Below, one piece after another: positions 1,367 to 47,526 of a DNA stretch of 64,000 nucleotides (within the stretch, counting starts at the first letter, position 1; every line of letters starts with the position of its first letter). Under the pieces are notes generated by a model. It made no database searches. It had not been told where the DNA came from and was given only the letters and a program-made list of their open reading frames with translations. This DNA is from Escherichia phage StefiGeyer_Bas88. The position numbers were made by a program, and so were the translations under genes. Location: sequence record PQ850628.1. One strand, 5' to 3'.

Positions 1367-1858
1367 ATGGATAATGTCGCATTGCCACCGATACAACTGA
1401 GCTTAAGCCCAGAAGGGATGGAATTCATCATGAAGCATGAAGGTATGAGAACTCGTGCTTACCAAGATTCCGCAGGTATCTGGACGATATGTGTTGGGGC
1501 TACGCGCGATATGAATGGGTATCCAGTTAGACAGGGATTAACGTATTCTATAGAGGATTGTCTAGCTCTGCTAGATAGAGACACACAAGACTCTGTTCGT
1601 GCTACTCAGAAAAATATAAGGGTTCCTTTGTTTACTAATGAGTTTGATGCTTTAACCTCTTTCAACTTTAATGTTGGCGGTACAGCTCTCGCTACTTCTA
1701 AACTAAGGAAAGTGATCAACGGAGATGTTAGAGGTGATGTTTACTCTGAGTTTTTGCGTTGGGATAAAATAACAGTCAGAGGTGTAAAACAACAGAGTCC
1801 GGGACTTCACAACCGAAGGGTTGCAGAAGCAGACCTATACACCACAGGTAAATACTAA
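1367..1858 (+). CDS. endolysin, T4/P22-type lysozyme (GH24 fold)
   Basis: HEGMRTRAYQDSAGIWTICVGAT and VPLFTNEFDALTSFNFNVG match the catalytic Glu/Asp/Thr region of phage lysozymes; strong RBS GGGAGG. Confidence 0.85.
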   Translation: MDNVALPPIQLSLSPEGMEFIMKHEGMRTRAYQDSAGIWTICVGATRDMNGYPVRQGLTYSIEDCLALLDRDTQDSVRATQKNIRVPLFTNEFDALTSFNFNVGGTALATSKLRKVINGDVRGDVYSEFLRWDKITVRGVKQQSPGLHNRRVAEADLYTTGKY

Positions 1859-18036: not shown

Positions 18037-18855
18037 TTACCAAGTTTTATCTAACCATGACCATTCAAAGAGGTCACCTTCAGCTTGTCCGACGAAGAGC
18101 AATCGAGCATTTTCTAACATCTTAGCTTCTGCTTCTTCCTCGAACCTCTTATAGTATTCCATTCGTATAATATGATAAAGAGTCCACTTATCGAATACCT
18201 TCTCAATAAGTTTGATAGCAGCTTTGCTACCAATACCCTTACGACGCATAACTAAGTTACCGCCCCACATCATTTCAACTTTCTCACCACATCCGGGGAT
18301 GTTGTCTGTACTGTCCCCAATCAACATCTGATAGAAGAAGTTCTGCCATGCTACTTCCTCTGGTACATAATGAGGGGGTACTTCTTTCTGTCGTTCACCA
18401 CAAGCCCAGCGATAATGCCATCCGGGAGTGATTAACAAATCCTTATCACGAGTACAGATGATTGTGTTCTTTTCTATACGCTGTCGTTCAGCGAGTGCAT
18501 CATCTGCTTCTCTGCCAAACACTTCAACATACTGGTAATGTTCTTTGATATAATCACTAACGTTCTGCCAGTGATGTGGCCTTTCTCCCGGAGGTCGGTT
18601 AGCTTTATAACCTTGCTGCTTGGCAACATCGAAGCGGAAGTTTCCACCTTCGCTGAAATAAAAGATTGTTCTTTCACAACCAGCTCTTGAGATGATTACA
18701 TCAATCTTATGTTGGAGACGTTCAATCAAGAATCCATAATCAACTGGAACACGACCTGTGTCTAGGAAAGGATGCTCTTGTGTAAGAGCACCAACCTCAT
18801 ACCGTAGAACATCTGCATCCACAATTGCTACTTCAGGATAGATTACATCAGACAT
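18037..18855 (-). CDS. 5'-3' exonuclease / flap endonuclease (T7 gp6 / T5 D15-like)
   Basis: IVDADVLRY N-terminal motif and LIGDSTDNIPGCGEK...GIGSKAAIKLI helix-hairpin-helix typical of FEN/RNase H-like exonucleases. Confidence 0.7.
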   Translation of the reverse strand: MSDVIYPEVAIVDADVLRYEVGALTQEHPFLDTGRVPVDYGFLIERLQHKIDVIISRAGCERTIFYFSEGGNFRFDVAKQQGYKANRPPGERPHHWQNVSDYIKEHYQYVEVFGREADDALAERQRIEKNTIICTRDKDLLITPGWHYRWACGERQKEVPPHYVPEEVAWQNFFYQMLIGDSTDNIPGCGEKVEMMWGGNLVMRRKGIGSKAAIKLIEKVFDKWTLYHIIRMEYYKRFEEEAEAKMLENARLLFVGQAEGDLFEWSWLDKTW

Positions 18856-19444
18856 AGAGACCTCTCCGTGTCCCTTCAATAATCCACTCCAAATCCTCCA
18901 CTGCCTCTTCTACAGAACGGTCATTAAAGAGGAGGTAGGTTGGTAGGTTTGTTCCTTCAATATAAGAACGGGAGTCCCCTTCAAAGGAGCATCCATCTCG
19001 GAGAATCTGAACTACTCGAACATGGAAACGTTTTTCCAGTTCTTCAACTTCTGCTTTAAACCCACCATCAGAGAATACAATAACATCATTCTGTGTTGGG
19101 ATGCGTTGTTGAATACTGCTAACAGCAAGTTTACCCATGCAGGTATCACCAAACATTGGTTTCAGGTAGTTCTCACTAGTCGCAATCATTAAATCTCGAA
19201 CTGTCTTACCGCCCCATTCAGGACGGCTATATTCTTTCCACTCACGGTCGTTGTATAGCTCCATGAACTCATAAAGAGGAAGTCCTAATGCAGCAGCAGC
19301 CACTCGATACATAGGCTCCTTAAAAGCCTTTACATGCGGTCTAAACTCAGTGTTACCGACGGTCTTCTCTAACCAAGCATTAGCGATTGTATCTTTACCA
19401 CAACCCGGTGGTCCATTCAGAATTACTACTAATGGTTTACTCAT
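18848..19444 (-). CDS. deoxynucleoside monophosphate kinase (T4 gp1-like)
   Basis: P-loop NGPPGCGKDT, the GKDT variant typical of phage dNMP kinases; start overlaps the sigma-factor stop (TAATG). Confidence 0.55.
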   Translation of the reverse strand: MSKPLVVILNGPPGCGKDTIANAWLEKTVGNTEFRPHVKAFKEPMYRVAAAALGLPLYEFMELYNDREWKEYSRPEWGGKTVRDLMIATSENYLKPMFGDTCMGKLAVSSIQQRIPTQNDVIVFSDGGFKAEVEELEKRFHVRVVQILRDGCSFEGDSRSYIEGTNLPTYLLFNDRSVEEAVEDLEWIIEGTRRGLYV

Positions 19445-20094
19445 TATTGAATCATCCCTTGAAGATCTTCTTTATCAAAGTGCTTCTCTACTACAGCTTC
19501 ATACAGATCACGATTCTCTGCATATCGGCGATAGAAGGTTCCGTGTGAAATTCCTAACTGCTGCTGAATATGATCATGAGGTATTCCAAGGAAGAGCATA
19601 GAGAACATGCTTGCCATTTTCTTGGTATCCATAATATCACTTAAGTCTTGGAAGAAGAAAAAGATTCTAGATTCCAAGAATGGGTCTCCAGTAGAGTCAT
19701 GCTTATCCATCGCAATCTCTAAAGGACTTTCCCATGAGTTCATCTCAGGGGGTCTAAACATATCAGCCTCTGGAATAGAGTAGATACGTCGGTCTCCAAC
19801 TGTCTGACGGTTAGAACGAATTGACCAGATGATATTCTTAACACGATAAGTCATGTGTTCAATATCTTTTTCATCAGTGAGCAGAAGTTCTTCTTGCTTT
19901 GCAAACACAAAACGCCAAGCGTTCAGTAACACTTCCTGAGCAACATCCTCTGCTTCGTGATAATCTTTAATGTCATACATAAAATAGCGATGCACAACTT
20001 TCCAATTCTCTCGATAGAATTCATCGAAGGTTGGATAATATTTAATAGGAATGCCATGAATACGATAGCGTGTGGGTGTTGTCTTCTTCTTCAT
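19444..20094 (-). CDS. phage-encoded sigma factor (sigma70-family, ECF-like size)
   Basis: [14 protein letters not shown] resembles sigma region 2.2; C-terminal [20 protein letters not shown] resembles region 4.2 helix-turn-helix. Confidence 0.5.
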
Positions 20095-20118: not shown

Positions 20119-20343
20119 TTAAACTACACAGAACAAATACATTGCTGTGTCAGGACAAGGGATGGCTGTCTGAATACCACTTACCTTAATCCACATATCT
20201 TCTTCAGGGTCGTAATAGGCCCAATAGGATTGATCTCCATCTACAAAGAATTTAAAAGTTCGTCCCCAAACCTGATTATTATATTCCCATACTGCATGAA
20301 GTTGAGTAACACCTTCTGGTATTGTAAGTTCCGCTCTGATCAT
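20119..20343 (-). CDS. hypothetical protein
   Basis: 74-aa ORF with ATGA overlap to the o-spanin stop. Confidence 0.3.
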   Translation of the reverse strand: MIRAELTIPEGVTQLHAVWEYNNQVWGRTFKFFVDGDQSYWAYYDPEEDMWIKVSGIQTAIPCPDTAMYLFCVV

Positions 20344-20600
20344 TGTATTCCTCTCTCCTTGAGAGCTTTCAGTAAACCATTATGGTTAGCAGCACAGGTT
20401 GTGTAGTTGTCCTGATACCACTCTAATGTTGTTGCAAATGCCACTCCCTGTGCACTCTGAAGCAAAGGGAGATCAACATCACACTCAGCTTTTAGGTTTG
20501 TTGGTAAGGGTATTAGCTGCCTGCTGTTGTCGCTCATTGAACAAGCTGACATACTCATCGCTAGCGCACACATTGTAAAAAACTGGCTTAGTCTTCTCAT
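20340..20600 (-). CDS. rz1: o-spanin (Rz1-like outer-membrane lipoprotein), overlapped architecture
   Basis: Signal peptide ending in a lipobox-like MSAC; Pro-rich mature part (LIPLPTNL...DLPLL); starts inside the i-spanin gene in another frame and extends past it. Confidence 0.5.
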   Translation of the reverse strand: MRRLSQFFTMCALAMSMSACSMSDNSRQLIPLPTNLKAECDVDLPLLQSAQGVAFATTLEWYQDNYTTCAANHNGLLKALKERGIQ

Positions 20601-20832
20601 AATGCATCTCTTTGTAAACAGTTTCCGTGTTCTTCTTCCAGTTAGTTAAACTAGTTAGAACTTTCTGAGCTACTTCATCAGCAGCCTTAGCTCTCTCAAT
20701 CTCAATCTCTTGTTGTTTCTTCTCTTGGTCAAGAGTGTTACTATCATTTCGATATTGTTCAAACTTCATTCCACCAAAGAATACAAGAGCTGTAAAGATT
20801 AAGAAGCCGATATTGTTTTGAAGCTTTTCCAT
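20485..20832 (-). CDS. rz: i-spanin (Rz-like)
   Basis: N-terminal TM helix (IGFLIFTALVFFGG) then charged coiled coil; GGAG RBS before ATG at 20832; overlaps o-spanin gene. Confidence 0.55.
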   Translation of the reverse strand: MEKLQNNIGFLIFTALVFFGGMKFEQYRNDSNTLDQEKKQQEIEIERAKAADEVAQKVLTSLTNWKKNTETVYKEMHYEKTKPVFYNVCASDEYVSLFNERQQQAANTLTNKPKS

Positions 20833-20843
20833 TTTAACTCCAA

Positions 20844-20868
20844 CGAAAAAAGCCACCCGAAGGTGGCT
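20844..20868 (-). terminator. rho-independent terminator (- strand)
   Basis: AGCCACC-UUCG-GGUGGCU followed by UUUUUU on the - strand transcript. Confidence 0.55.
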
Positions 20869-20891: not shown

Positions 20892-21632
20892 TTAGAAAGG
20901 GCTGTCATCTTCTTCAAAGGTAGATTGCGGCTCTTCATTAATAGTAGGGATACTTGGAGTCGCGTCTTTCTGTTCAGTGTCAGAAGCGCGAGTAACTTCA
21001 CGACCAGCCAGAGGAATGTTTTTAGCATCATTAGCTTGGGTCAGGAGGTTACGTTGGAATGGGAACATAGCTTGATAAGCAGCCAAGTTAGCGTCAGTTT
21101 CAGCATACGGTTCGAAGAAGATCAACTCACTACGAGGAGCACCTACAGCATCACGATACTTAGTTGGGATGGGGGTGATGCTCTTGATAGAGTTTTTCTT
21201 CTCACCAGCTTTGTTGGTGTAAGAATTAACCAGAATGTTGACAGGCTGACCAAGCAGCATATCTTTGAACCAACCCAAATCACCTTTCAGTGCTTGAACA
21301 CTTGGGTCGATCATTTTAATTAGGTTCAGAATACCAGAGTTCTTAGCTCGTGGGTTTACATCGAAGGATTTAAACTGACAAGCAGGACGTGGGTCCAATG
21401 CCTTACCATCATTATCTGTACCAGTCGCGTCAACACCAATCAGTTCAAATGCCAAGTCCATACGGAAAGCGGGGTTCTTAGGAGTAACTGCTTTGGTCTT
21501 AGGGTCAATCCAAGGGTCACGATTGTGAACACCTAAACCTACTACACGAACAATGCGTGCTTCGTACTCGCCATCAGGGATTACATCGTAGTTGGATTTA
21601 CGGGATACAGACAGTTCAGGGATCATAGACAT
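20892..21632 (-). CDS. single-stranded DNA-binding protein candidate with acidic SSB-like C-terminal tail
   Basis: 246 aa ending FEEDDSPF, resembling the DDDIPF tail of SSBs; AAGGAA RBS. Confidence 0.35.
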   Translation of the reverse strand: MSMIPELSVSRKSNYDVIPDGEYEARIVRVVGLGVHNRDPWIDPKTKAVTPKNPAFRMDLAFELIGVDATGTDNDGKALDPRPACQFKSFDVNPRAKNSGILNLIKMIDPSVQALKGDLGWFKDMLLGQPVNILVNSYTNKAGEKKNSIKSITPIPTKYRDAVGAPRSELIFFEPYAETDANLAAYQAMFPFQRNLLTQANDAKNIPLAGREVTRASDTEQKDATPSIPTINEEPQSTFEEDDSPF

Positions 21633-21690
21633 ATTAATATTTCCTTATATAAATTTAAGATTGTTGCTCTCTTTGAGCGGTTGGTATACT

Positions 21691-21701
21691 ATATACATTA
21701 C
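21691..21701 (-). promoter_or_regulatory. phage promoter-like motif (GTAATGTATAT) facing SSB-like gene
   Basis: Motif on - strand about 60 nt upstream of the 21632 start. Confidence 0.3.
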
Positions 21702-21761: not shown

Positions 21762-21774
21762 GTAATGTATATAT
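21762..21774 (+). promoter_or_regulatory. inverted copy of promoter-like motif
   Basis: GTAATGTATATAT on + strand, forming an inverted pair with 21691..21701. Confidence 0.25.
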
Positions 21775-21974: not shown

Positions 21975-22595
21975 CTACCATTCTAAAAGACCTTTAAAGC
22001 TAGTTTGTTCTACTGTTCTCTGAAAAGGTGAGTTAGATTCAGCTTGTTTACTTAACATCTCTTGTACTTCGCTGGTAATTGGATAATCTTTTTGTAATAA
22101 AGAAGCTACCCACTCTTTCCTACTTTCTAGTTCTTTTCTAATCTCTTGCAGAGATACAGCTCTATAATCAATTTGTTCCATAGAAGTACAAAAGTATCTC
22201 CAATCTTTAATAGTAGAATTATGAGTATGAGCATAGATATTATACTTCCCTCTCATTTCATCAGAGTGAATAGGAATATGAGTTACCCAAAACTCTTTGT
22301 ACTTATAATCACCACTGATGTGTCTAAAGACTTTCATCATATCAGGGAGAAGTTCTAATCTGTCATGGTTTCCTAGGACAAGATGTTTCTCTCCTTTTAC
22401 TTCAGCGATAATATCAAGTGCATATTTCTCAAACACCCAATCACCTGTAAAGAAAGTTTTATCACGTTTAGTAACATGGTCAAAAGCTGCTAGGATAGCT
22501 TTGTCATGTTCTTCAATACTACTAAACTTCTTCCTAAAGTTACAGATGTTACGATGGCCTAGGTGACCATCACCTGCAAAATAAACTTCAGCCAT
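21975..22595 (-). CDS. calcineurin-like metallophosphoesterase
   Basis: GDGHLGH ... FTGDW ... LVLGNHD metal-binding motifs. Confidence 0.65.
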   Translation of the reverse strand: MAEVYFAGDGHLGHRNICNFRKKFSSIEEHDKAILAAFDHVTKRDKTFFTGDWVFEKYALDIIAEVKGEKHLVLGNHDRLELLPDMMKVFRHISGDYKYKEFWVTHIPIHSDEMRGKYNIYAHTHNSTIKDWRYFCTSMEQIDYRAVSLQEIRKELESRKEWVASLLQKDYPITSEVQEMLSKQAESNSPFQRTVEQTSFKGLLEW

Positions 22596-24409: not shown

Positions 24410-24721
24410 CTACTTCTCCACCACAAAGAGGTTAACTTCAATGAAAGTTTCGTATTGTGTTGACTCCTGCTTACGGGTGTAGTAGAAATGACGACCTTCT
24501 AATGCACCTCCGTACTGAGTGGCACATCTTTTAACCATCTCTTTTATCACATCTACAACTGATACGCCTTTCCACGGACGTAACCCATGAGTAGGAATTT
24601 CTGCTGTGCAGGTTACTTGTGTGTAACCCACATCTTGGAGAGGTATATCAAGAATCAGTTTTGCCCAAGCATCAAAATTGAGCTTGGGATTATATTTAAC
24701 TTCAGTTTTGATATCAATCAT
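24410..24721 (-). CDS. hypothetical protein
   Basis: 103-aa ORF directly downstream of the polymerase gene. Confidence 0.35.
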   Translation of the reverse strand: MIDIKTEVKYNPKLNFDAWAKLILDIPLQDVGYTQVTCTAEIPTHGLRPWKGVSVVDVIKEMVKRCATQYGGALEGRHFYYTRKQESTQYETFIEVNLFVVEK

Positions 24722-26568
24722 TAGTGAGTATGATTCCAGTTAAGCCCAATCTTACAATCTGATGCAAGAGGGCATTCCATCTTGAGGTATTCACCCGCTT
24801 TACGAACACACTCCTCAGTGAGAGTGCGAAGTTTGTTAACATCGTCACGATGTACAGTGAACTGACCTTCATCATGCATGTCGATAACCTTCGCACAACG
24901 AACACCATCACGCTCAATCCATTTATTGAGGAATAGCATTGCATACTTCATAACAATCGCCCCAGCGCTCTGTAAGAGCGTATTTAAGGCTTTGTGTGTC
25001 ATGACCTTTCCTGTACCGTCACGTCTCATTGTAATACGACGACCGTCAACACCGTAGATGTATCCACTTTGTGCTTTCTCTGTCATACGTTCAATAAGGA
25101 TTGCAATACAAGGGTTCTCTGCTAAGAATCTAGCTCTCATTATAGAACCTTCATCAGCCCCACCACCAACAATACTACCTAGCTTAGCATCACCAGCTCC
25201 GTAGTTGAATGCGTAGATAAACGTCTTAGCATTATCACGGGTAGGCAAGCCAGCAAGTTTCTGGTTATGGGAGTGAATATCACCCTGTAAGAGAATATCT
25301 CTGTACAATACGGCAGATGCTAAACCGCGTTCAGCTTCTCGTTTCTTAGCTGGGTTATTCTCTTGTTCTGCCTCTGCCAACATCTCACGACACTCTTTAA
25401 TAAGGTAGTGAGCCAGCATACGCAGTTCTAACCCTGAACCATCATAACCAAGAAATACTTCATGACCAGAAGGTATGTAATATTTCAGAGCACCTATCGG
25501 TTTGTCTTTCTTGCCCGGTTTTCCCACTTCGTAGATAGTGTTTGTACCTTTTCGTACGTAACACCCATCAGGGATATGGTTGGTAATGATGATAGGATTG
25601 TGATTACTATCACTTGAGGTACAGTCAGACTGAAATAGACTGCGGCACTCGTGACCAAACAAACCGCGAGAAGGAATATTAACAACAATACGGTGTTTAA
25701 AACGAAATGTCGGAGTAGCGCAGCTATTAGCTTCGGCGGACAACTTACCATCTTCTCGTTCCTTGTCTATAAGACCATTAATCAAGCCAAGCCTATGAGC
25801 CGCTACAACACGTCTCTTAAGCAAACTTCCCACACCCCCTAGCTCACCCCCAAGACCTTCTTCAAGCGTCTCCTCGAGGTTTGTAGGAGCTGTAGGCCAT
25901 TTGTTTGACATGGCTAGAGCTTTCTTAATTTCATCAAAGGTTACAGGCTTCTTCCTGTTCGGATTCAAACCTAAACCGCTAACGTACGCTTTCATGTAAT
26001 TGACAGTGTGATAACGGAAGTGTTTATCCAAGAACCGACGAATGTCAGCGTCAATCATCTCAGCTGTCTGTTTTTCTTTAGCGTTTCCTCGCATCCAAGC
26101 AGAATACCAAGCAGCATATGTGCCATACTTCTTCATCGCTTTACGGATTTCGTAAGTATTCCAAGGTTTCTTGGATGTGTTCCACTCTGGAGGAATAAAG
26201 CCTTCGTCCATCAAGGCTTCTTTGATACGTGCATCTTTCGATGGGTCGAAGTCTACATACTCAACGCAAGTAAACGCCCCACCGATATCTTCTCTTTTAA
26301 GACCAACTCTGTCACAATAGAGCTGAGGCCACTTCTGTAAAGCACCTGACTTCTTAAAAGGTTTCGAATAAGTTGAACCATCCACCCGCATTTTGGGGAG
26401 GAGAGGAATCAGTTCTTTATCAATATTGACAATAATCTCTTTGAGAAGGTGAACAAACCACCGAGCGTTTCTTCTGTGGAAGTTGACGCCATGCTTCGCC
26501 TGCTTTGAGATTATATCAGCGACTGTCATCTCCGTTATGAAAGGTAACTTATCAGGGTTATCCATCAC
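24721..26568 (-). CDS. family-A DNA polymerase, polymerase domain only
   Basis: Motif B RDNAKTFIYAFNYGAGDAKLG and motif C MHDEGQF; no 3'-5' exonuclease motifs in this ORF. Confidence 0.8.
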   Translation of the reverse strand: MMDNPDKLPFITEMTVADIISKQAKHGVNFHRRNARWFVHLLKEIIVNIDKELIPLLPKMRVDGSTYSKPFKKSGALQKWPQLYCDRVGLKREDIGGAFTCVEYVDFDPSKDARIKEALMDEGFIPPEWNTSKKPWNTYEIRKAMKKYGTYAAWYSAWMRGNAKEKQTAEMIDADIRRFLDKHFRYHTVNYMKAYVSGLGLNPNRKKPVTFDEIKKALAMSNKWPTAPTNLEETLEEGLGGELGGVGSLLKRRVVAAHRLGLINGLIDKEREDGKLSAEANSCATPTFRFKHRIVVNIPSRGLFGHECRSLFQSDCTSSDSNHNPIIITNHIPDGCYVRKGTNTIYEVGKPGKKDKPIGALKYYIPSGHEVFLGYDGSGLELRMLAHYLIKECREMLAEAEQENNPAKKREAERGLASAVLYRDILLQGDIHSHNQKLAGLPTRDNAKTFIYAFNYGAGDAKLGSIVGGGADEGSIMRARFLAENPCIAILIERMTEKAQSGYIYGVDGRRITMRRDGTGKVMTHKALNTLLQSAGAIVMKYAMLFLNKWIERDGVRCAKVIDMHDEGQFTVHRDDVNKLRTLTEECVRKAGEYLKMECPLASDCKIGLNWNHTH

Positions 26569-35505: not shown

Positions 35506-36054
35506 CTACATTTTCCAGTTGAGAGATGGGGGATTCTTATAATCAAATCCAGCCATTTGGCAAAGACACATGTAAACCTTAACTGTCAAGTTAACGTCTT
35601 GCTCACAATACGTGAACATGTCTTCAGTGAAAGCATCCCATGCTTCTTCCTGCTCACCATAATCACCCTTTAGCTCACCCAGAAATTCGCCCCATTGCTT
35701 GAGGCCATGACCACGAGGGCCATGTCTTGGGTCGCCTTTGGGATATTCTGGATTGTCTCCAATACGGTCAGGCTTGAGATAACGACTCAGGCAAAGTGTA
35801 TCGAAAACATTGAAACGGAAGGGTGTTACATGAGAGTAGAATTTAAAGAGAGCTGGTAGGTCAAAATCTATGATATTGTGTCCTACAACTACATCAGCTT
35901 CCTTCAGTTTGTGAAGAGCTTCTTCAATTTGGTGAGGGCGATACCCCCACCGCTCTCCTGAGAGAATATCAAATATCCAGATACACCAGACATTTTGGAT
36001 ACCCTCATAAAGATTATCACCCTCAATATCGAAGGCGAATATTTTCTTTACCAA
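35506..36054 (-). CDS. DnaQ-like 3'-5' exonuclease (stand-alone proofreading domain)
   Basis: Exo I FDIEGD, Exo II HNIIDFD, Exo III YCEQD. Confidence 0.7.
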
Positions 36055-37838
36055 GGTCGTGCCTCCCCGTCTTGTGTTAGAAGGGAAGCTGCATCTTCAC
36101 CATTGGTTAAGACAAACGGATTAGCTTCATCAACTTCATGATCTTCTCGTTCTACAAGACGACCTGTTTCGTTGATGTATTTGGTGTAGCAAACACCTGT
36201 CTGACCATAGTTACGCTCCTTAAGGAGACGTATGATTGACAAATTCTTGCCTAACCCATCTGCTTGCTTATCTCGTTCAAAACCGATGATACACTGACAC
36301 CAACGCATCAGTGAACGTGAACCAGTGAACTGAACCTCTTTCACCTGTCCACCTTCTTCGTGAGGAGCACCACCTGCCGGAGCATTCAAGTGAGATAATA
36401 CAAAAGCAGTGAAGTCTAATTCCTTACACATACCAGCAAGCTCTGAGGCAATCTTACTGATTTCTGTATTCACTTCAGAAGGAGTTAGGTGAGATACCAA
36501 TGCAGTGATGTTATCAAGAATGATAAACTTACATTGATTCTCAACTACCCAAAAGCGAATACACTGCTTAATATCATCCCACTCATTCTGACCGAAGTTA
36601 TCATACAAGAAGAATTTATCAGCATAACGAAGTGCTTCATCACGTAGCTGAGATTCCTCATATTCAACATCAGGTCGGTGGAAAGGTACAGATGCTGACT
36701 TACCTGCAATGTTTTTAACAGACATGCCTACCTTCTCTTCCAAGAAGAAGCCACCACCATTAAACCCATGTTCAAGGCAAAGCCATGCTACCAGTTCGTG
36801 TGCTATCAGGGTTTTACCTGAACCAACACCACCACCGATTGCAACCATCTCTCCCCAACGAATGCCGAAGGTCATTTCATTCAGAGTTTTCCACGGATAA
36901 GGAATACCCCACTCTGCTTTCTTCAGAGCATCTTCTAAACAATCAAAGACAGTAACAGCACCAGCAGGTGATTCCCGCTTCGCTGAATACTTCAGATTGT
37001 TGAATAACTCTTGACCTCGACCAGCGAGTAACATGTCATTTGCATCTTTGATTTCCTTCTCTTGACCATTGTAAGCGAAGGTTCCTTTCGGAATACGAGC
37101 AAATTTAACATGGGGATATAATGCACGACCTTTAGTTAATGCAATCTCACCTGCATCATCATTATCCATGCAGAGCACAATCTCCTCAAAACCATTCAAG
37201 AAGTCACGGTTACGTGAGAGAACGGAAGAGATTGAACCTGCACCAAACGGTAGAGATACACACGCAGGTTTGATGTTTGTAGCGTTCGTGAACGCAGTGA
37301 GCACATGGAAGCCAGACATACAAGAGAGTGGGTCTTCAAAGATGAAGAGTTTCTTGTTGTACACGTCACCACGTTGTGCTTGAGCCATACCGAATAGGTC
37401 AGCTTCTTTAACACTGCCGATGTAATAGAATTTCTTGCTGTCTAGAAGCTTAACTTCATAGCCAACAATGTTTCCATCACGTTCACGAGGGAAGAAGTAA
37501 CTATCAGGAGTTTGCCCATCTGTCTGACTCAAACCGATACGACATTCATATCGTTCAGAGACAGCTTTAGGAATCAAACGACGAGTAAGCTCACCCTGAG
37601 GTAGCTCTAAGCAATCGTCTAAGATCTCTCGGAGTTCTTCAGGGGATAGTTCTTTCTTCTCATTCGGTGTAGGAGTTGTTCCCTTTTCGAAAACTTCATA
37701 ACTACCACAGCGATTACAACTGCCCCACTCTTCACCGGACTCTTCATTTCGGAAGAGAATCATGTGATTGTGGGTCTTATCACGACCATGAGAGATACAT
37801 TCTTTACAACCTGTATCCCCTAAAATGATCTTTGACAT
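36048..37838 (-). CDS. primase-helicase (T7 gp4-like)
   Basis: N-terminal zinc-binding Cys clusters, TOPRIM-like middle, Walker [10 protein letters not shown] and DnaB-family helicase motifs. Confidence 0.85.
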
Positions 37839-39009: not shown

Positions 39010-40257
39010 TTACAGAGTTACTGCTACTTCACTACCTTCAACAGTTACAGACTCTAACTTACGAGGGTTGTGGACTTGTTGCGGATGAACCGGAACGTTC
39101 CAGCCACTGCGGTAGAAGTTACGACCATCGCAGAACAGAATGACATTGGCAGACATTGCATTAGGTTGCAGGTTGTTATGAACATGACGAATATCTGCAA
39201 TCCAGTAACCACGAGACAACACATAACCAGTAGGTGCATTACGGATTGTCTGAGTATTCATCTGACCTTCCAGTTGCATTTCTTCAGGAACTACATCCAC
39301 TGAATCAACCGGCTGTGCGACTTGGCCTTCCAGTGCGAAGTTTTCATCATCAGCACTTTCACTGTCAGCAACCAATTCACCATCTCCATCTTCAATTGGA
39401 GCTTCAACAGGTGTTGCATAAACCACTTTATACTGAGGAGTATAGAGAGGGTTTTGAGCTTTAACAAACTCAAGGATATTGTGACGGTAGATATCCAGAG
39501 TTGTGCCAGTTAGGCCCGGTGCTGTATTAACTTCCAGTACCCATGCTTCTTGACCTTTGGTGATGATATCAACTGCACCGAAATCTAGACCCATTGATTC
39601 AACAGCTTTCACTGCGTTGATCAGAGAGGCATCGTTCGGAACGTCTGTGAAGGAACTTGAGTAAACCCAACCAGTGTGATGGTTACGAACATCTTCACGA
39701 TAGTTAGGGTCTTCACGATAACCGTTACGACGAATCTTTTTCTGAACATAGGTGATAGCACCTTTGAACACATGGACACGCCATTCACGACGTGGGCCTA
39801 GAATACCTTTGGTGTACAGTTCAGCTTGACCAACTGAATCACGAGGCTCTACAACAATGATACCTGAACCAGAGTGACCAGTCAGTTCATGACGTTCATA
39901 CACAATGTTGCCAGAGTTTGACCACTCCTGAGCAGTTGATTGAACATCTGTATACTCAACAGTTTTAACACCTGCTTGGTCCATTACACTGAAAGCGCGA
40001 CGTTTGTTCGCTGCCATATGTAAGGCTGCGGTACGGTTAAGAACAGTTGCAGAACCAAAGAAGGATTCAGGATAGCGACGGTTCCCGTAGTTCACAACCA
40101 CATCACCCTCACGAGAACGCCAGCGACTGTTCTCTGAAAGAAGACCCATTACGTTAGCGTTGATACGTTCATCACGGATAGTATCGTTAATGGCAGTTAC
40201 CAGAGCGTTAACAGAATCAGAAGGGCCATACGGAAGAACACGGATACGAGTAGTCAT
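39010..40257 (-). CDS. ATP-grasp ligase, RimK-like
   Basis: GLDFGAVDIITKGQEAWVLEVNTAPGL matches the RimK-type ATP-grasp C-terminal motif; acidic insert EDGDGELVADSESADDENF. Confidence 0.6.
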   Translation of the reverse strand: MTTRIRVLPYGPSDSVNALVTAINDTIRDERINANVMGLLSENSRWRSREGDVVVNYGNRRYPESFFGSATVLNRTAALHMAANKRRAFSVMDQAGVKTVEYTDVQSTAQEWSNSGNIVYERHELTGHSGSGIIVVEPRDSVGQAELYTKGILGPRREWRVHVFKGAITYVQKKIRRNGYREDPNYREDVRNHHTGWVYSSSFTDVPNDASLINAVKAVESMGLDFGAVDIITKGQEAWVLEVNTAPGLTGTTLDIYRHNILEFVKAQNPLYTPQYKVVYATPVEAPIEDGDGELVADSESADDENFALEGQVAQPVDSVDVVPEEMQLEGQMNTQTIRNAPTGYVLSRGYWIADIRHVHNNLQPNAMSANVILFCDGRNFYRSGWNVPVHPQQVHNPRKLESVTVEGSEVAVTL

Positions 40258-40259
40258 TT

Positions 40260-40490
40260 TTAGATACCTTTTAGTTTAAGAATTTCGTTACGACAGGATT
40301 GAATTTTAACTTCGATTTCCCAATACTTGGCGAACATCTCGTCTTCTTGGTCATCGCTTGGTGAATCAATTAGGTTAAAAGCAAACGGATACAGCTTTCG
40401 CTGCTCCGTTACCAGTTGTTGAAGTCGGAGTTGTTGATACTCCAGCATTGTCAGGTGAGGCTTAGCTCCCTTGCTTGACATGAGGCTCAA
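40260..40490 (-). CDS. hypothetical small protein
   Basis: 76-aa ORF inside the cluster. Confidence 0.3.
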   Translation of the reverse strand: MSLMSSKGAKPHLTMLEYQQLRLQQLVTEQRKLYPFAFNLIDSPSDDQEDEMFAKYWEIEVKIQSCRNEILKLKGI

Positions 40491-40695
40491 CTTTAATCCC
40501 CTTCAATTTCACATAGTCAGCCAACACGTTGTTGATAACGGTTGGGAAAGGGATTTCAACTGGAGAGTTAACCAGTCCCCCAATACCTTCTTGCATCCAT
40601 TTCTGAATAGCTCGAAGGTTATCACATCCTGTGCTTGTCATTGGGATACGTCGAGTGGTTACAACGTTATCCAACATCAATTTACGAACTTCCAT
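40462..40695 (-). CDS. hypothetical small protein
   Basis: 77-aa ORF inside the cluster. Confidence 0.3.
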   Translation of the reverse strand: MEVRKLMLDNVVTTRRIPMTSTGCDNLRAIQKWMQEGIGGLVNSPVEIPFPTVINNVLADYVKLKGIKVEPHVKQGS

Positions 40696-40706
40696 AACTT
40701 CACCTC

Positions 40707-42710
40707 TTAATGTTTACCTTTACAGTAATCTGAATTACAGATCACCCTGTTTTCTTTGTTTAGTGAGCAAATTTCTGCATCACGCCACGGAATTTGTTTA
40801 TAACAGACCGCACAAAACCCAATTGAAGTCCAGAGGGCTTTTGTGAACTCAGCTGTTCGTTGTCCGTCGTAACTGACAACTGTTTTTCGGAGAGTTGTTT
40901 GCTTTTCTGGAAATGTTTCCGCTTTCTCAGCGGGCACCTCCTTTGGGGCATTCTTTGGACCATAAACAGAGATGGCATAGGTATCGCCACCACGTTTTTC
41001 CAAATAAGAGTTTGGAACATCAGACAGCTCAATATCACCAGAACGTTTAGCTGAACTAGCCATTACAGTCATTCGGCTAAGCATACGCTGATCAACACGA
41101 ACTGCTACTTCAGGGCGACGTGGGTTAGTTGTGTCGACTGCTTTAGTCCAAATGTAACCTTCAGACAATGTAGTGTTAGTCACTTTGTCTTTGATTTCTT
41201 TGGCACAGACATAACAAATATCTTCACCACGAAGTTTACTCATTTCGTTATCAAACTCGAAATCAGTTTTAACATTGCCACATACAGCACAGACACCTAA
41301 AGGAATGTCTTCATCTTCTTCAGACGGTTTGGACAACGCTTCGAAACAGGCCGGATGCCAATATGCTTGGTAAGCGAACACAGCTTTCTTAGCATCTTTC
41401 CATTCAATGTGCTTGTCACAACCGCCACAATCACCATGAGAATGTGATTCCCAGAACTTACGGGTGACTTCCACACCATTCTTAGTGATGAAGGAGTCTT
41501 CTAAATCAAAAGGGATATCATCATCAAAATCAGCGGTGGTGCTTTGAGGCTCCTTATCGGTAGCATCAACAAACAGCCCTGAAGTGAGTACGAGGCGAAT
41601 CATACTGTCCACTTCGGAGATACAAGCAACCGTCCCGCGATACACCACCTTTGGGTTTTCGAGAGCCTTCAAGTATTCACTCTTGGCTACATTATGAACA
41701 TCACCCTCAACATACTCTTGAGCAGCATCATCATAAATATAACCAACCATCTTACCACGGTCAGTGTTGTTGTAAGCGTGGAACTCGTGAGGGATGATAT
41801 CCACACGACCGTCACGACGATACGGAAGACCACGATCGGCAGCCAGTTTATTCTGATCTTCAATCGCTTTACGACGACGAATGTCTCCGCTTGTCACGCC
41901 GGGCTTGTCGTCTTTGTTTCCGTAAATGTCGCTTGTGCTGCTGCTTGACTTGTTTGTCTGTTGGTTCTGATATAGAGAGGAGTTCGAGTAATAGCCGCCC
42001 CAGCGACTCGTTACCGTAAAAACCGGAAGCTTGTGCTCCACCTCTTGAGTCAGAGTCATACGGTTGCCAGACAAATCAAAGATGTATTCAGTTCCCACTT
42101 TACACTCAAAGTGATCATTGATACGGTTCTTGTGTGACTTGGAACGATTAAGAATCCACATCAACATATCTTCTTCAGAAGCACCAAACCAATCCAGACC
42201 ACAACGGGCCAGATGGAAAGGACGTTCATCGTTACGAATGATATGCAGAGTATTGTCTTTGGCGTCATGCCAGATTAAAGTGAACGCACCATCCAACTTC
42301 TGGATAGTCTCTGCTGCGCCGATGGTGTTGATTGAATGACAGATGTTTTCGCTATCAACTTCGAAATTCTTATGATCTGGTAACAGTTCCTGATCTAACA
42401 GTGTACCATTATGAACCAGAGTAATGTCACCATGAGAGAATGGGTGAGCATTTCGAGCATTGACAGCACCACGTGTGGCATGTCGGCTATGACCAACAAT
42501 CCACGATGGAGGAACTACATAGTTCGTAAGCCCCTTAGTAAGATTCGTGTACCCTGTCTGGAGCATGAAGGCATAGGAAGGAAGTGCTTCTTTATAAGAA
42601 AATACTTTTTCATCACCTTTACGCTGACCGAACACACCAGTTGAGTGCTGACCACGGAAGACTCCAGCATACAGAAGCTGGTTGAATACGTCTAAGTCTG
42701 TGGAGGTCAT
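40707..42710 (-). CDS. class-II (Ntn-type) glutamine amidotransferase domain protein with C-terminal zinc ribbons
   Basis: GHSRHATRGAVNARNAHPFSHGDITLVHNGTL matches the GAT-II core; C-terminal CxxC clusters (CGGCDKH, CAVCGN, CYVCAK, CAVCYK); N-terminus is MTSTD, with no Cys at position 2. Confidence 0.55.
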   Translation of the reverse strand: MTSTDLDVFNQLLYAGVFRGQHSTGVFGQRKGDEKVFSYKEALPSYAFMLQTGYTNLTKGLTNYVVPPSWIVGHSRHATRGAVNARNAHPFSHGDITLVHNGTLLDQELLPDHKNFEVDSENICHSINTIGAAETIQKLDGAFTLIWHDAKDNTLHIIRNDERPFHLARCGLDWFGASEEDMLMWILNRSKSHKNRINDHFECKVGTEYIFDLSGNRMTLTQEVEHKLPVFTVTSRWGGYYSNSSLYQNQQTNKSSSSTSDIYGNKDDKPGVTSGDIRRRKAIEDQNKLAADRGLPYRRDGRVDIIPHEFHAYNNTDRGKMVGYIYDDAAQEYVEGDVHNVAKSEYLKALENPKVVYRGTVACISEVDSMIRLVLTSGLFVDATDKEPQSTTADFDDDIPFDLEDSFITKNGVEVTRKFWESHSHGDCGGCDKHIEWKDAKKAVFAYQAYWHPACFEALSKPSEEDEDIPLGVCAVCGNVKTDFEFDNEMSKLRGEDICYVCAKEIKDKVTNTTLSEGYIWTKAVDTTNPRRPEVAVRVDQRMLSRMTVMASSAKRSGDIELSDVPNSYLEKRGGDTYAISVYGPKNAPKEVPAEKAETFPEKQTTLRKTVVSYDGQRTAEFTKALWTSIGFCAVCYKQIPWRDAEICSLNKENRVICNSDYCKGKH

Positions 42711-42817
42711 GTTGCCCCCAGCTAATACGATACCACAAATTTTCTAATCCACCTGAAGGGTAAACCCTTTCATCTAATTAACCTTTAAATGCGCCCTTTA
42801 TCAGAGCGCCCATTGTG

Positions 42818-43918
42818 TTACAGCAGTCGTTCTAATTGCATTTCCAGATGGTCTGGAATGTAATCGGTGATGTTATTATCACTGCTACCTGATTCACGCA
42901 TCAGAGCAAACATGTGACGAATTTCACGAACCGTTGCGATTCGAGTGTTTTCAATCTGAGGGGTGTAATAGGTCATGATCTCTTCATAAACAGAGTTAGC
43001 ATTACCTCGTACATATCCCAAGAAACCGTAGAAGTCACCCATGTCACGCAAGTTGATAAGGATTTCACCATCAGGTCCAGTCTGCTGTACACGAACACGA
43101 CCAACCAGAGTAACAGAATGTTCACGACAGAACAGAATATCACGAGCCAAACGATAACCGCCAGTCAGGTCATCATCATTAGGTGTGTAGTCCAGAGGCA
43201 GATACTGAATCATAGGAGCGAAGCGTAGCTCATTCAGTTTCTCAACATATGCTTCATTGTCCAAATCTGCATACTCAACAGCTAGTTTCTTGAGAACCAA
43301 GAAGCGGTTGACCAGATTAAGGAGTTGGCTTTTCTTCCACTTTGGCTCTGAGATACGAAATTCAACAGAACCAAACTGAGCCAGAGGTAATAGGTTAAGG
43401 GAGGTGTACTTGTCCCAGCTATTAACAAGAGTATTGAAGAAGGCTTCACCATCTCGGTTGAACGCTGCGGAAGCATTCATTACCTGTGCTTGAACAACAG
43501 CAAAGGCAGGACAGAAGTTGCTACGATAGCGATGGTATCCAGAACATTTGAACATCATCTTTTCATAGAACGTCCATCCAAGAATTACTTTCTTCAGGAT
43601 GTTACTATCAGCGTCACGCATATCCATATGAACGTGAGTAGAGCAGCGCCAAGTCCCTTCAGCTTCAGAGTCTTGTACTGCTTCACTCAGATTGTTAATA
43701 GCACTAAGCAATTCTACACCGTTATAAGGCCGTGCACAAACCATCTCACAGCCATCACGAAGTGAACCATCTTCAGTACAAACCCAAAGGTCTGCATCAA
43801 TTTCAGAGGTTCCTTCAACTTCCAGCTCGATGCCAATACCACACTGAAAAGCGATGCTTGGGTGCGGCTCAGCCAGACGAGCATTACGGTATCCAAAAAC
43901 TTGTGCTACGGTTGTCAT
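42818..43918 (-). CDS. amidoligase, glutamine synthetase/GCS2-like (copy 1)
   Basis: GIGIELEVEG and CSTHVHMD motifs typical of carboxylate-amine ligases of the GCS2/amidoligase family. Confidence 0.5.
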   Translation of the reverse strand: MTTVAQVFGYRNARLAEPHPSIAFQCGIGIELEVEGTSEIDADLWVCTEDGSLRDGCEMVCARPYNGVELLSAINNLSEAVQDSEAEGTWRCSTHVHMDMRDADSNILKKVILGWTFYEKMMFKCSGYHRYRSNFCPAFAVVQAQVMNASAAFNRDGEAFFNTLVNSWDKYTSLNLLPLAQFGSVEFRISEPKWKKSQLLNLVNRFLVLKKLAVEYADLDNEAYVEKLNELRFAPMIQYLPLDYTPNDDDLTGGYRLARDILFCREHSVTLVGRVRVQQTGPDGEILINLRDMGDFYGFLGYVRGNANSVYEEIMTYYTPQIENTRIATVREIRHMFALMRESGSSDNNITDYIPDHLEMQLERLL

Positions 43919-44541
43919 AACGTTTCCACCAACTCTACATTATATGATGACAGATCTGAAGAAATATGCTTGAACTTCTCCAGAAGATTTAAAGATTGAC
44001 GACCATTGTCGCCGTAACCAGCAGAAAGATCAACTTGACCTACAAGTGCCCCTTTGTAATAAACTTTACCATCGACAGGGTTGATGTAGATGAAGCGAGT
44101 AACCAGACCTTCGAAGTCAGGATTAAACAGATTATACACCAGCTCTCCCGGAATCGAACGACCCATTGAAGGAGGTGCGCCACGTAATTTGTTCCCCATC
44201 AGACCTTTAGCTCGCTGACGAACAGGGTTGATATGAGTCCAGCTTACCATGTTGTTGCCGTGTTGTAAGTATCCCACATCTGGAGATTCCAGAATAAGGC
44301 TTTGATCAAACACAGGAATGCCCTGAACAACCTGTCGTTCAAACTGCCCTTCGGCGTTCTTAGACCAGCGTTCAACTTCAAAAGTTAAGGCCATTTCTGC
44401 TTCGTGAGAGAAGTCATCTTCTCCAAAGCGGTTTGCTTGGTTCACGTTGAGTACATAAAGAGGTAAGTTAATTCCTCGTTCTGCACGTTGGGCAATCCAT
44501 GTTCCGCAATAATAATGCTGAAAATCTCTTAACAGGCTCAC
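43915..44541 (-). CDS. hypothetical protein in amidoligase cluster
   Basis: 208 aa; start overlaps the upstream stop; no motif. Confidence 0.35.
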   Translation of the reverse strand: MSLLRDFQHYYCGTWIAQRAERGINLPLYVLNVNQANRFGEDDFSHEAEMALTFEVERWSKNAEGQFERQVVQGIPVFDQSLILESPDVGYLQHGNNMVSWTHINPVRQRAKGLMGNKLRGAPPSMGRSIPGELVYNLFNPDFEGLVTRFIYINPVDGKVYYKGALVGQVDLSAGYGDNGRQSLNLLEKFKHISSDLSSYNVELVETL

Positions 44542-44550
44542 GATAACACC

Positions 44551-45357
44551 TTAGATAATCTGGAGTTTAGAGGAGAACTTATCCGCTTCTTTAACATCGT
44601 TGCTATTGATGATGTTGTGAAGCTTTTCGATAGGCAGACGGGAGTGCAGAGACATGAGAATTTCCATATCACAGCCCTGAATAACCTTATCAACTTGATC
44701 GTAAACAAACTTACGAGTGGACTGTTCACCAATCCAGAAGTTCGACAGAGAACGGTATTCAATACCATAATCTTTATAACGAATAGCAGATGCCTTGCCG
44801 TAAAGCTCTTTACGACGAGTGTCCTTATCCATAATTACCGCTGGAAGTGACAAGAAGTAATCACACAGAACACCCAGCATCATCTGAGTCTGTCGAGTTA
44901 CTTCCAAAGACCCTGCAACACCGAGGTGTACGTGACCGCCAGCAGTACGAAGACCTTTGTCTGTCGCTACCGGAGATGGGTTTTTCTGACCAGTGAAGGC
45001 GTTGAAATCAGGAGTACAGCCAAACACAAAGGCTGATGGATGGAATGATTGCAGCTCTTCAGAAGTGTACACATGAGAACTAATCCCAAGTGCAGCTTCC
45101 ATACCACGTTCATTAAGAACTTTGTTGGTCAGATCAATACCACGCTGGATGTTATCATCAAACGCTTCGAACCCTTTCTGTGGGTTAATATCGAATTCAG
45201 CCAGAACGTTGTCTTCTTGAAGACGAACATCAGGGGCCAGATCAATTTTGTTATCTTTAGAACAGCCCAGCTTACCAGCCACAGAGGTGATAATACCAGA
45301 AGCAGTACGAACAAACATTTCAGGGTCAGAACCAATAAGGAAAGCACGCTTAGTCAT
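44551..45357 (-). CDS. amidoligase, GCS2-like (copy 2)
   Basis: RTAGGHVHLGVAGS and EFDINPQ motifs; ATG at 45357 abuts the upstream gene. Confidence 0.45.
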   Translation of the reverse strand: MTKRAFLIGSDPEMFVRTASGIITSVAGKLGCSKDNKIDLAPDVRLQEDNVLAEFDINPQKGFEAFDDNIQRGIDLTNKVLNERGMEAALGISSHVYTSEELQSFHPSAFVFGCTPDFNAFTGQKNPSPVATDKGLRTAGGHVHLGVAGSLEVTRQTQMMLGVLCDYFLSLPAVIMDKDTRRKELYGKASAIRYKDYGIEYRSLSNFWIGEQSTRKFVYDQVDKVIQGCDMEILMSLHSRLPIEKLHNIINSNDVKEADKFSSKLQII

Positions 45358-46300
45358 TGTAATACTCCACAAGTTCATCAAAAAGGGAAACAACACGGGC
45401 ACCAGCTTCTTCTGGTGTCATTGAGGAAGGTACTGCTTGCATCAAGCGTTCAATAAAACTGCGAACAGTAATTCTGTCCATACGCTGATCTAATACTTCA
45501 CGTTTATGGCCTGCACACATTGACCAGAGACGCAACCACTCACTCATACTTTCGTAATAGTCAGGGTCTTGGTCACGACGACGAGCCATACTACGAAGAA
45601 CTCCGTCATTATGGTTTCGTACATAACCATCTCTGTTATCACCAACACCGAACACGTTCTGAACCCATACGTTTTCAGAAAATTCGTCAGTGGTACAGAC
45701 CAGTGGCAAGAATGCAATTGCACTCATTTCGCCAGTAAAATAGGTCGCTGCTGATTCATCATCAGTATCCACATCATGTGAATAATCCCAACGACCAAAG
45801 AAGTTACGACTTAAACCAGCTAAGCGTAAAGCTAAGCCGATTCGTTGTCGCTTGAGTAACTCTTCCTTGTCTTGAACGCCTTCCTGAAGGAACTCCATTC
45901 CCATAAAATCCCCATCCAGATAACTACGGAGGGTCATTAATCCAGTAAACACCTTGTCTGCTGGGTGGTCTCGAAGGTTCACGGCAACTGAGTTCACCGA
46001 AGTGACAGAGAACATGTTTTTATAGCAAGACATTGAGTTAAAAATGTCTGTTGCTTCAACTAAAGCTCTTTCGATATCTTTAGCTGGTACGCCATAAAAA
46101 TTGTGAGGCCAGAAGTTGATAACTCCAACTTCTGAAGTTCTATCACGAAGGCTTGAGAGATTGATACTGTCGCCATTAATGTCTGTAACAGCATACATAT
46201 GCTGACAGTTGAAAGTACCAAAACAAGCTCGCCCTCTGAACACTGACTCACCAAAGTTCTCTGATGGTGTTACCGGAGCAGTCGATGCGGAGATTGACAT
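45350..46300 (-). CDS. hypothetical protein in amidoligase cluster
   Basis: 316 aa; tightly packed with neighbours. Confidence 0.35.
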   Translation of the reverse strand: MSISASTAPVTPSENFGESVFRGRACFGTFNCQHMYAVTDINGDSINLSSLRDRTSEVGVINFWPHNFYGVPAKDIERALVEATDIFNSMSCYKNMFSVTSVNSVAVNLRDHPADKVFTGLMTLRSYLDGDFMGMEFLQEGVQDKEELLKRQRIGLALRLAGLSRNFFGRWDYSHDVDTDDESAATYFTGEMSAIAFLPLVCTTDEFSENVWVQNVFGVGDNRDGYVRNHNDGVLRSMARRRDQDPDYYESMSEWLRLWSMCAGHKREVLDQRMDRITVRSFIERLMQAVPSSMTPEEAGARVVSLFDELVEYYND

Positions 46301-46308
46301 ATTCGCCT

Positions 46309-47526
46309 CTATTTATTGAAGAATAATTTTTCCAAAATGTTTTCCCACTCTTCTGAGGGACGTACTGTATAATTACTACCTGTCAGTCCATTGGACATAC
46401 TACTGATAATGTTATACATGTTGTAGCTTCGAGCTGAAGCTGTTTCATTGTTCCAGTTATAACCGAACACAATTTTAGCAAAAGATGTTTCAGATTCAGC
46501 CACCTCTCGGATAAATTCAACCAAGAGTGACTTTTCTGTGATGATTGGGCGGGTATCTTCCGACAGATGGCAATATTGAGGCAAAAGGATTGGCAAGAAC
46601 ATCGAGTTGTTCACTCGACAATCACGAACACCTTCACTGCGATAGATCAGACTGGAGAAGTCTTCATCACGAAGATGACCTTCACCTCCAGTGTATTCAC
46701 ACTGTCGCCATTTGGTCTGGCGAGGCTCAACCATTGTACTACCAACACCCACTGTATACAGAGATGCTTGGAAGATACAGGAATCGTAATCATTCCCTGT
46801 TAAAGCAACACGTTCGTTACCGAACACATCCACTGAAGAGTTGATCAGTCGGCTGAATGCAAGAGAGGCTAAAGGAGACCAGCCCTTCTTATACATCTTG
46901 TTCAACATTTCATACACAGCAGATTTTTCATCATCTGTATAGAATGTGCGATTCAACATCAGATAGAACAGAGCACGATCAGCGGGACAGCCATCAGTGC
47001 AAACACCCATGAACCCTACTTCATGCCATACCAGACATGAGTCAGAGTCTTTGTCCATGAATGCTGCAAAGGTTTCCATAACAACACGATCAGTGATGTC
47101 AGGACGGTTGTTTTCTTCTGCCCACGTTTCCACATGAGAAGGAGGACGAGGGTCTTCATTTTCTAACCCTTCACGGAAATACTGAGTAGCGATATATTCA
47201 GTATCACCATAACGTCTTACACCGTGAGCTGGAAGATGTGTTCCGGAGTTCCAGATATACTTGATTTCAGACATAGGCAACATATTCTCAAGAACGTTCT
47301 CTTCAGCAGTGCCTTGACGAACCATCATATTTCCACTCCACACCTTGATGCGGATATTCCAGCCGAAATTACTATCGTATGTATTATAGTAATCAGGATC
47401 ACCATCTTCATCATCGTCATAATCACCACCCTGATAGTAACCTGCTTTCAGGAAACCATAACAAGGGGGCCAGACGGTTACAACGTCTTCTGATTCTTTC
47501 CAGCTTTGAAGTGTTACAGGGAACAT
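46309..47526 (-). CDS. hypothetical protein in amidoligase cluster
   Basis: 405 aa with acidic N-terminal stretch GGDYDDDEDGDPDYY. Confidence 0.35.
   Translation of the reverse strand: MFPVTLQSWKESEDVVTVWPPCYGFLKAGYYQGGDYDDDEDGDPDYYNTYDSNFGWNIRIKVWSGNMMVRQGTAEENVLENMLPMSEIKYIWNSGTHLPAHGVRRYGDTEYIATQYFREGLENEDPRPPSHVETWAEENNRPDITDRVVMETFAAFMDKDSDSCLVWHEVGFMGVCTDGCPADRALFYLMLNRTFYTDDEKSAVYEMLNKMYKKGWSPLASLAFSRLINSSVDVFGNERVALTGNDYDSCIFQASLYTVGVGSTMVEPRQTKWRQCEYTGGEGHLRDEDFSSLIYRSEGVRDCRVNNSMFLPILLPQYCHLSEDTRPIITEKSLLVEFIREVAESETSFAKIVFGYNWNNETASARSYNMYNIISSMSNGLTGSNYTVRPSEEWENILEKLFFNK

Follow-up and report, generated by a model that had tools for sequence, protein, structure and literature searches.

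A Kuravirus protein with a host-type acidic C-terminal tip is a probable single-stranded DNA-binding protein

The gene considered here lies on the minus strand at positions 20892-21632 of a 64,000-nt stretch of DNA from Escherichia phage StefiGeyer_Bas88 (sequence record PQ850628.1), which was analysed as a whole and is referred to below as the window. We propose, with a probability of about 0.8, that this gene encodes the Kuraviruses' binding protein for single-stranded DNA (ssDNA), or SSB, a protein in which a disordered linker joins an oligonucleotide/oligosaccharide-binding (OB) core to an acidic tip of the host type. The proposal is based on the conservation of the tip, the predicted fold of the core, the nearest structural neighbours and the position of the gene among replication genes.

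The open reading frame (ORF) listing showed that the gene starts with ATG and stops with TAA, the stop codon being included in the coordinates, and that the product of 246 aa has the C-terminus ...EEPQSTFEEDDSPF / ...INEEPQSTFEEDDSPF, followed by TAA, with ...STFEEDDSPF as its last letters. An ORF on the plus strand (20925-21323) and small minus-strand ORFs within the gene were dismissed as spurious, since the conservation sits in the 246-aa frame. By megablast and tblastn, the source phage belongs to the group Kuravirus (phiEco32-like podophages, Gordonclarkvirinae); phages TH34, TH42 and TH43 match the region at 97-98% identity, and ECBP2 and TH42 encode counterparts of the protein with 99-100% identity. 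It is a homologue of phiEco32 gp40 (phi32_40), whose record says "hypothetical protein", and the same label was found on all annotated tblastn match rows except that of Ptacy1479, which reads "ssDNA-binding protein". A Pfam scan gave nothing at E<=1, PF00436 and PF05037 included, and the PDB yielded no match either by sequence or by profile. In the PHROG library the protein matched phrog_6599 over its full length (E 4e-109) and phrog_862 (E 5.6e-8), both of which are described as "unknown function". A search of 5.8 billion proteins retrieved 46 homologues, and an exhaustive profile search with the family gave 279 clusters (50% identity) at E<=1e-3, and 126-128 of 128 distant relatives matched both phrog_6599 and phrog_862. 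The Xp10 protein 37L also belongs to this family (hhalign probability 96.8%). The alignment used for the conservation analysis and for AlphaFold2 modelling comprised 42 homologues with 38-97% identity.

A preliminary description of the window had assigned to this gene an SSB-like protein ending in an E. coli-SSB-like acidic tail, EEDDSPF, and the comparative analysis agrees with it in the exact ORF as well as in the tail. The acidic tip E-D-D-S-P-F occupies residues 241-246 (20895..20912, minus strand), and the family consensus obtained from the alignment is D-D-[DE]-x-P-F, the type of the E. coli SSB tip DDDIPF. P245 and F246 are invariant in all 42 aligned homologues, D or E is present at positions 241-243 in at least 35 of the 42 sequences (83-98%), and position 244 is occupied by S, I, A, V or C. 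With a column entropy of 0.95 bits, as compared with 1.13 bits for the OB strands and 2.30 bits for linker residues 211-238, the tip is conserved more strongly than any other segment of the protein, whereas the linker varies freely; the tail past G210 is 31 to 53 residues long across the homologues. Several relatives end in PFDDDIPF or DFDDDIPF, the latter being identical to the E. coli tip. The C-terminus of E. coli SSB, taken from the RefSeq chromosome, reads ...SNEPPMDFDDDIPF, and hhalign comparison of the family profile with this protein gave an alignment confined to the 8-residue tip. The window contains 313 stop-to-stop segments that are 60 aa or longer; of these, the one carrying this gene is the sole segment with a PF ending, and no other combines 4 or more acidic residues among its final 10 with an aromatic end. 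Judged by these sequence counts, the acidic tail is no chance feature. Of the distant members (n=127), 94 have an aromatic last residue, the ending P-[FWY] occurs in 64, and in 83 an aromatic (F, W or Y) end goes with 3 or more acidic residues among the final 10, a sequence pattern such as would be expected for SSB tips tracking their partners.

The preliminary description had named fold prediction for an OB domain as a test of its proposal, and the AlphaFold2 model, with a mean predicted local distance difference test score (pLDDT) of 83.4, a predicted template-modelling score (pTM) of 0.78 and a core mostly above 90, returned an OB topology. The predicted OB-fold core covers residues ~13-155 (21168..21596, minus strand) and is composed of beta1 (21-36), beta2 (55-69), beta3 (82-92), two helices (100-108 and 119-126), beta4 (130-139) and beta5 (145-153); in the model, this order of beta1-3, helix and beta4-5 is the classical OB topology. 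It is followed by a C-terminal helical sub-domain (residues ~156-210; 21003..21167, minus strand), in which the alignment shows F173, P175, Y176, Y186, Q193, D202 and G210 to be invariant, and by a weakly conserved linker with a pLDDT of 45-58 (residues 211-240; 20913..21002, minus strand). The disordered part of the model, residues 211-246, makes up a 36-residue acidic tail with a calculated isoelectric point of ~4, while residues 1-210 are slightly basic (8.6). A predicted N-terminal OB fold, a disordered linker and an acidic Pro-Phe tip are thus all found in this protein.

When the structural neighbours of the model were ranked, they were overwhelmingly ssDNA binders, and the nearest solved structures were those of ssDNA-binding OB proteins. 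Since the structure-match scores are modest, we regard the modelled core as a very divergent OB fold. Foldseek matched the model to 58 viral proteins in BFVD at E<1e-3; nearly all of these are uncharacterised podophage or siphophage proteins, and they include Xp10 37L and proteins of P3_CHA, RSJ2 and AbaP_B3. Three DUF669-annotated proteins also matched, with E ~5e-5 to 1e-4 and target-normalised TM-scores of 0.41-0.47.

The location of the gene likewise agrees with the SSB-like assignment of the preliminary description. The window carries a T7-like replication set, namely a 5'-3' exonuclease (18037-18879), a family-A polymerase (PolA; 24721-26568), a separate 3'-5' exonuclease (35506-36054) and a DnaB-like (gp4-like) primase-helicase (36048-37838). 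The order PolA, SSB-like gene, (spanin), sigma factor gp36 and 5'-3' exonuclease is kept in the 10 IMG/VR loci of sufficient length to take in the three neighbours, including those with protein identity as low as 41%, and in a further locus at 37% identity PolA still adjoins the SSB-like gene; the contigs of two distant relatives, P0083 and P0064, end too soon to display the flanking genes. The Xp10 37L gene is flanked by the DNA polymerase and exonuclease genes of that phage. No other SSB is annotated among the 129 features of the full genome of Bas87.

The gene also has expression signals of its own. A ribosome-binding site, AAGGAAA, lies 7 nt 5' of the ATG (21640..21646, minus strand), and TAATGTATA, an element of the promoter recognised by the phage sigma factor gp36, lies 60 nt 5' of the ATG (21692..21700, minus strand), where it corresponds to the mapped phiEco32 gene 40 promoter. 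Genes 6, 13, 26, 40, 58 and 68 of phiEco32 are downstream of mapped gp36-dependent promoters with the consensus tAATGTAtA (PMC8948821), which is also given in PMC12276001. The exact 9-mer TAATGTATA was observed 4 times in the window against 0.67 expected; another copy precedes the gp26 homologue, and promoter P26 is already in experimental use. The promoter element, the leader and the ribosome-binding site, the last taken by itself as well, are invariant in four Kuraviruses. On the other side of the gene, an intrinsic terminator, AGCCACC-TTCG-GGTGGCT plus a T tract, begins 24 nt past the stop codon (20841..20868, minus strand). With its own gp36 promoter and a strong terminator, the gene therefore forms a self-contained one-gene transcription unit. 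A second, inverted copy of TAATGTATA was observed at 21763-21771 on the plus strand; it lies upstream of the gene-40-type promoter, ~63 nt away, and points in the opposite direction. Both opposed copies are invariant in four Kuraviruses. Transcription from the inverted copy would go antisense into the phosphoesterase gene at 21975-22595 (minus strand), and this copy, located in a 340-bp AT-rich spacer, may act as a promoter, divergent or antisense, or be related to an origin.

Taken as an SSB, the protein would work as follows. The gene would be transcribed in the middle phase from its gp36-dependent promoter and transcription would end at its own terminator. The product would coat ssDNA exposed by the T7-like replisome, consisting of the gp4-like primase-helicase, the split family-A polymerase and the 5'-3' exonuclease, and would contact ssDNA through the conserved aromatic and basic OB residues Y23, R26, R29, K52, F56, F87, Y138 and K141. 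DNA binding would free the tip, whose terminal Pro-Phe-COO- and aspartates could then dock into basic or hydrophobic pockets of partners; these may come from the phage (replisome or recombination proteins), from the host (SSB-interacting proteins) or from both. Its ssDNA binding, and with it the oligomeric state and the partners of the tail, we infer.

Comparison with known SSBs showed likeness in architecture and distance in sequence. The E. coli SSB (PF00436), of which many phages and plasmids carry copies, has the same succession of OB domain, disordered linker and acidic tip D-D-x-P-F. The PF00436 core, however, is ~115 aa in length versus ~210 aa here, the cores show no sequence likeness (no PF00436 match at E<=1), and the present protein differs from PF00436 members in the pair of helices that separates beta3 from beta4 and in an additional helical sub-domain; Foldseek TM-scores of the model against bacterial SSBs were 0.2-0.35. 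The T7 protein gp2.5 (232 aa versus 246 aa) is an OB variant with an acidic tail ending in Phe, and this tail contacts the T7 polymerase and helicase; its phage has a gp4-like primase-helicase and a family-A polymerase, as is the case here, so that in the present phage, too, an acidic tail with a terminal Phe accompanies a T7-like replisome. The gp2.5 end, ...EEADEDGDF, differs from that of the SSB-like family in having no penultimate Pro, and for this reason the tip described here is of the bacterial SSB C-terminal (SSB-Ct) type and not of the T7 type. Neither gp2.5 nor Enc34 ORF6 (DUF2815) gave a profile match, and their structures 1JE5 and 5ODL were absent from the top 50-60 structural matches. 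At the sequence level, membership in the PF00436 and gp2.5 families fails.

A third group, comprising N4 SSB, DUF669 (PF05037) and SSB_HK620, consists of phage-specific, highly diverged OB SSBs of 190-265 aa, and acidic or aromatic PF-type tails occur in DUF669 members and HK620 as they do in the SSB-like family. Kazlauskas et al. tied N4 SSB to DUF669, arguing that the two are strongly diverged OB folds which carry acidic tails and occur in phages that have no other SSB (PMC4889955), and Hutinet et al. demonstrated that the HK620 protein, which is of the DUF669 type, is a genuine SSB whose NDYPPF tail is required for loading the phage Sak4 (PMC5928155). PF05037 gave no match for the present protein, and only 2 of 128 distant relatives matched it weakly (E>=3.5e-4). 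The AlphaFold2 model of N4 SSB runs from a beta-beta-beta, helix, beta-beta arrangement through an additional long hairpin and a pair of helices to a disordered tail; this order of elements is comparable, and the two models are compatible, though the likeness is not decisive. N4-type SSBs (L002 10322-11119; P0313-P0432) have a conserved basic end, ...KSLFGKK, and not an acidic tip. Because the profile comparisons were negative, we did not file the protein under DUF669 or gp2.5, and we consider its membership in an N4/DUF669/HK620 superfamily plausible but unproven. PrgE of plasmid pCF10 (PDB 8S4S; 128 residues in the solved chain) is 13% identical to the present protein; PrgE binds dsDNA as well as ssDNA and oligomerises via its N-terminal tail, and no SSB-Ct-like tip has been reported for it.

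Several points weigh against an SSB function. Pfam, PDB and hhalign comparisons gave no sequence or profile link to PF00436, T7 gp2.5 or HK620 SSB; single sequences of N4 SSB, HK620 SSB and T7 gp2.5 were all negative against the family profiles, and hhalign of the family profile against the HK620 family found nothing. Against the N4 SSB family, hhalign gave a marginal match (E 1.8e-3, probability 15%) that is co-linear over 130 columns of the OB core; the HK620 family compared with the N4 family as positive control gave a probability of 84%. OB folds serve roles other than that of an SSB, and the statement that there is no other SSB depends on the annotation of a genome with mostly hypothetical genes. 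In three relatives (P0011, P0014 and P0021), 14-16 further residues, AP[IV]GLQEGRxY..., directly follow ...DDxxPF, and if the extended proteins work in the form in which they were called, some members do without a free Phe carboxylate. Finally, support for an SSB function across the family is wholly computational. As to the extended relatives themselves, the extension would bury the terminal Phe carboxylate unless it is removed or the gene call is wrong. At the P0014 locus (L009 3001-4207), an HNH_3 homing-endonuclease ORF overlaps or abuts the extended end, and a group I intron, considered as the cause of the extension, was not found there by Rfam.

The preliminary description left it undecided whether the protein is a true SSB or a decoy. 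As a pure decoy it would not coat ssDNA, and its SSB-Ct mimic would titrate ExoI, RecQ, PriA, RecG, Ung, chi and other host proteins, thereby disabling host repair or restart or protecting phage DNA. The host-type tip (D-D-D/E-x-P-F), which in some relatives is the same as the E. coli DFDDDIPF, and the arrangement of the gene for strong independent expression would suit such a role. For titration, however, a tail alone would suffice, yet an OB-type core of 200 residues, with its aromatic and basic residues, is conserved across the 279 clusters; the gene is fixed beside that of the DNA polymerase, and without this protein the phage replisome would have no annotated SSB. On these grounds we hold a pure decoy to be very unlikely, and the evidence speaks far more strongly for the true SSB. 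The two options are not exclusive, since an SSB bearing a tip of the host type would remain a competitor for the host's SSB partners.

A protein that keeps ssDNA binding but has its primary role outside replication, as a recombination mediator or annealing partner (like SSB_HK620 with Sak4) or as a transcriptional co-activator (like N4 SSB at late genes), is quite unlikely in our view. The remote structural likeness to DUF669-type proteins (Foldseek E ~5e-5), which are linked to annealing functions, the co-linear but marginal profile match with the N4 SSB family, the beta3-alpha-beta2 topology with helices and disordered tail in the AlphaFold2 model of N4 SSB, and the phage sigma factor gene two genes away all speak for it. 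On the other hand, no Sak4-like gene is annotated next to the SSB-like gene, N4-type SSBs end in the basic SLFGKK rather than in an acidic PF tip, and gp36 and gp79 already account for middle and late transcription in Kuraviruses; moreover, such a role would be added to the SSB role and would not replace it. It is most unlikely that the protein is an OB protein with an unrelated job, such as RNA binding, a structural or ejection function or inhibition of a host enzyme, in which the acidic tail serves only as a DNA mimic or for autoinhibition. In favour of this reading, OB folds take on many functions, the solved SSBs resemble the model weakly and the PHROG and Pfam libraries yield no function; but an invariant Pro-Phe at the exact C-terminus past an acidic run is a hallmark of SSB tips that mere acidity does not require, the structural neighbours are overwhelmingly ssDNA binders, and the gene lies in the middle-gene replication cluster and not in a virion module. 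An SSB function is thus the reading that we retain.

As for what the tip does, in E. coli the Pro-to-Ser change of ssb113 or the loss of the terminal Phe abolishes partner binding, and chimeric T7 gp2.5 bearing other SSB tails reportedly works; a host-type tip is therefore compatible with binding to the phage replisome as well as to host proteins. We tentatively suggest, as a possibility we rate rather low, that the tip is a functional mimic of the host SSB C-terminus, which would link host SSB-interacting proteins to the phage replisome or withhold them from the host chromosome, and that it is a swappable host-adaptation module, in some lineages perhaps copied from a host-type ssb. One relative with 41% identity (P0041; L029 937-996) ends in SSEPPVDFDDDIPF, as compared with SNEPPMDFDDDIPF in E. 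coli SSB (L030 680-739). Its gene and the 3' end of the chromosomal ssb have in common an identical run of 20 nt, TTTGATGACGATATTCCGTT, and by BLASTN its last 39 nt match ssb in >2000 E. coli genomes. In this small sample, the tip of P0041 may have arisen by capture from a host-type ssb rather than by convergence.

The neighbouring genes were also inspected. The sigma factor gene, homologous to that of phiEco32 gp36, is located at 19444-20094 (minus strand) and was assigned by a weak Sigma70_r2 match and by the sigma factor label in relatives. Between it and the SSB-like gene lies a likely spanin pair (20340-20856, minus strand), in which an Rz-like ORF of 123 aa (20485-20856) overlaps one of 86 aa (20340-20600) that has a lipobox-like MSACS. 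This pair is distant from the ORF at 1367-1858 (plus strand), which matches the endolysin annotated in Bas87 in position and length, and in Bas87 an HNH endonuclease gene interrupts the corresponding spanin gene. In the early/middle region, a cluster at 39010-47526 (minus strand) contains genes of the amidoligase, class-II glutamine amidotransferase, ATP-grasp (RimK-like) and COOH-NH2-ligase types.

The assignment is a useful annotation within the established concept of phage SSBs and does not describe a new kind of system. It provides a testable function for phiEco32 gp40 and for a large unnamed family (279 clusters at 50% identity; PHROGs 6599/862/2544) that is currently "hypothetical" and that takes in Xp10 37L and, by structural match only, podophage proteins of Pseudomonas P3_CHA, Ralstonia RSJ2 and Acinetobacter B3. 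It would complete the replisome parts list of the Kuraviruses, which serve in phage therapy work. Phage SSBs trigger several bacterial defence systems, including Retron-Eco8 and DARNA, and a new SSB family would widen the set of candidate triggers. The host-type tip would also offer a simple system in which to ask if phage SSBs draw in the host's SSB partners or keep them sequestered.
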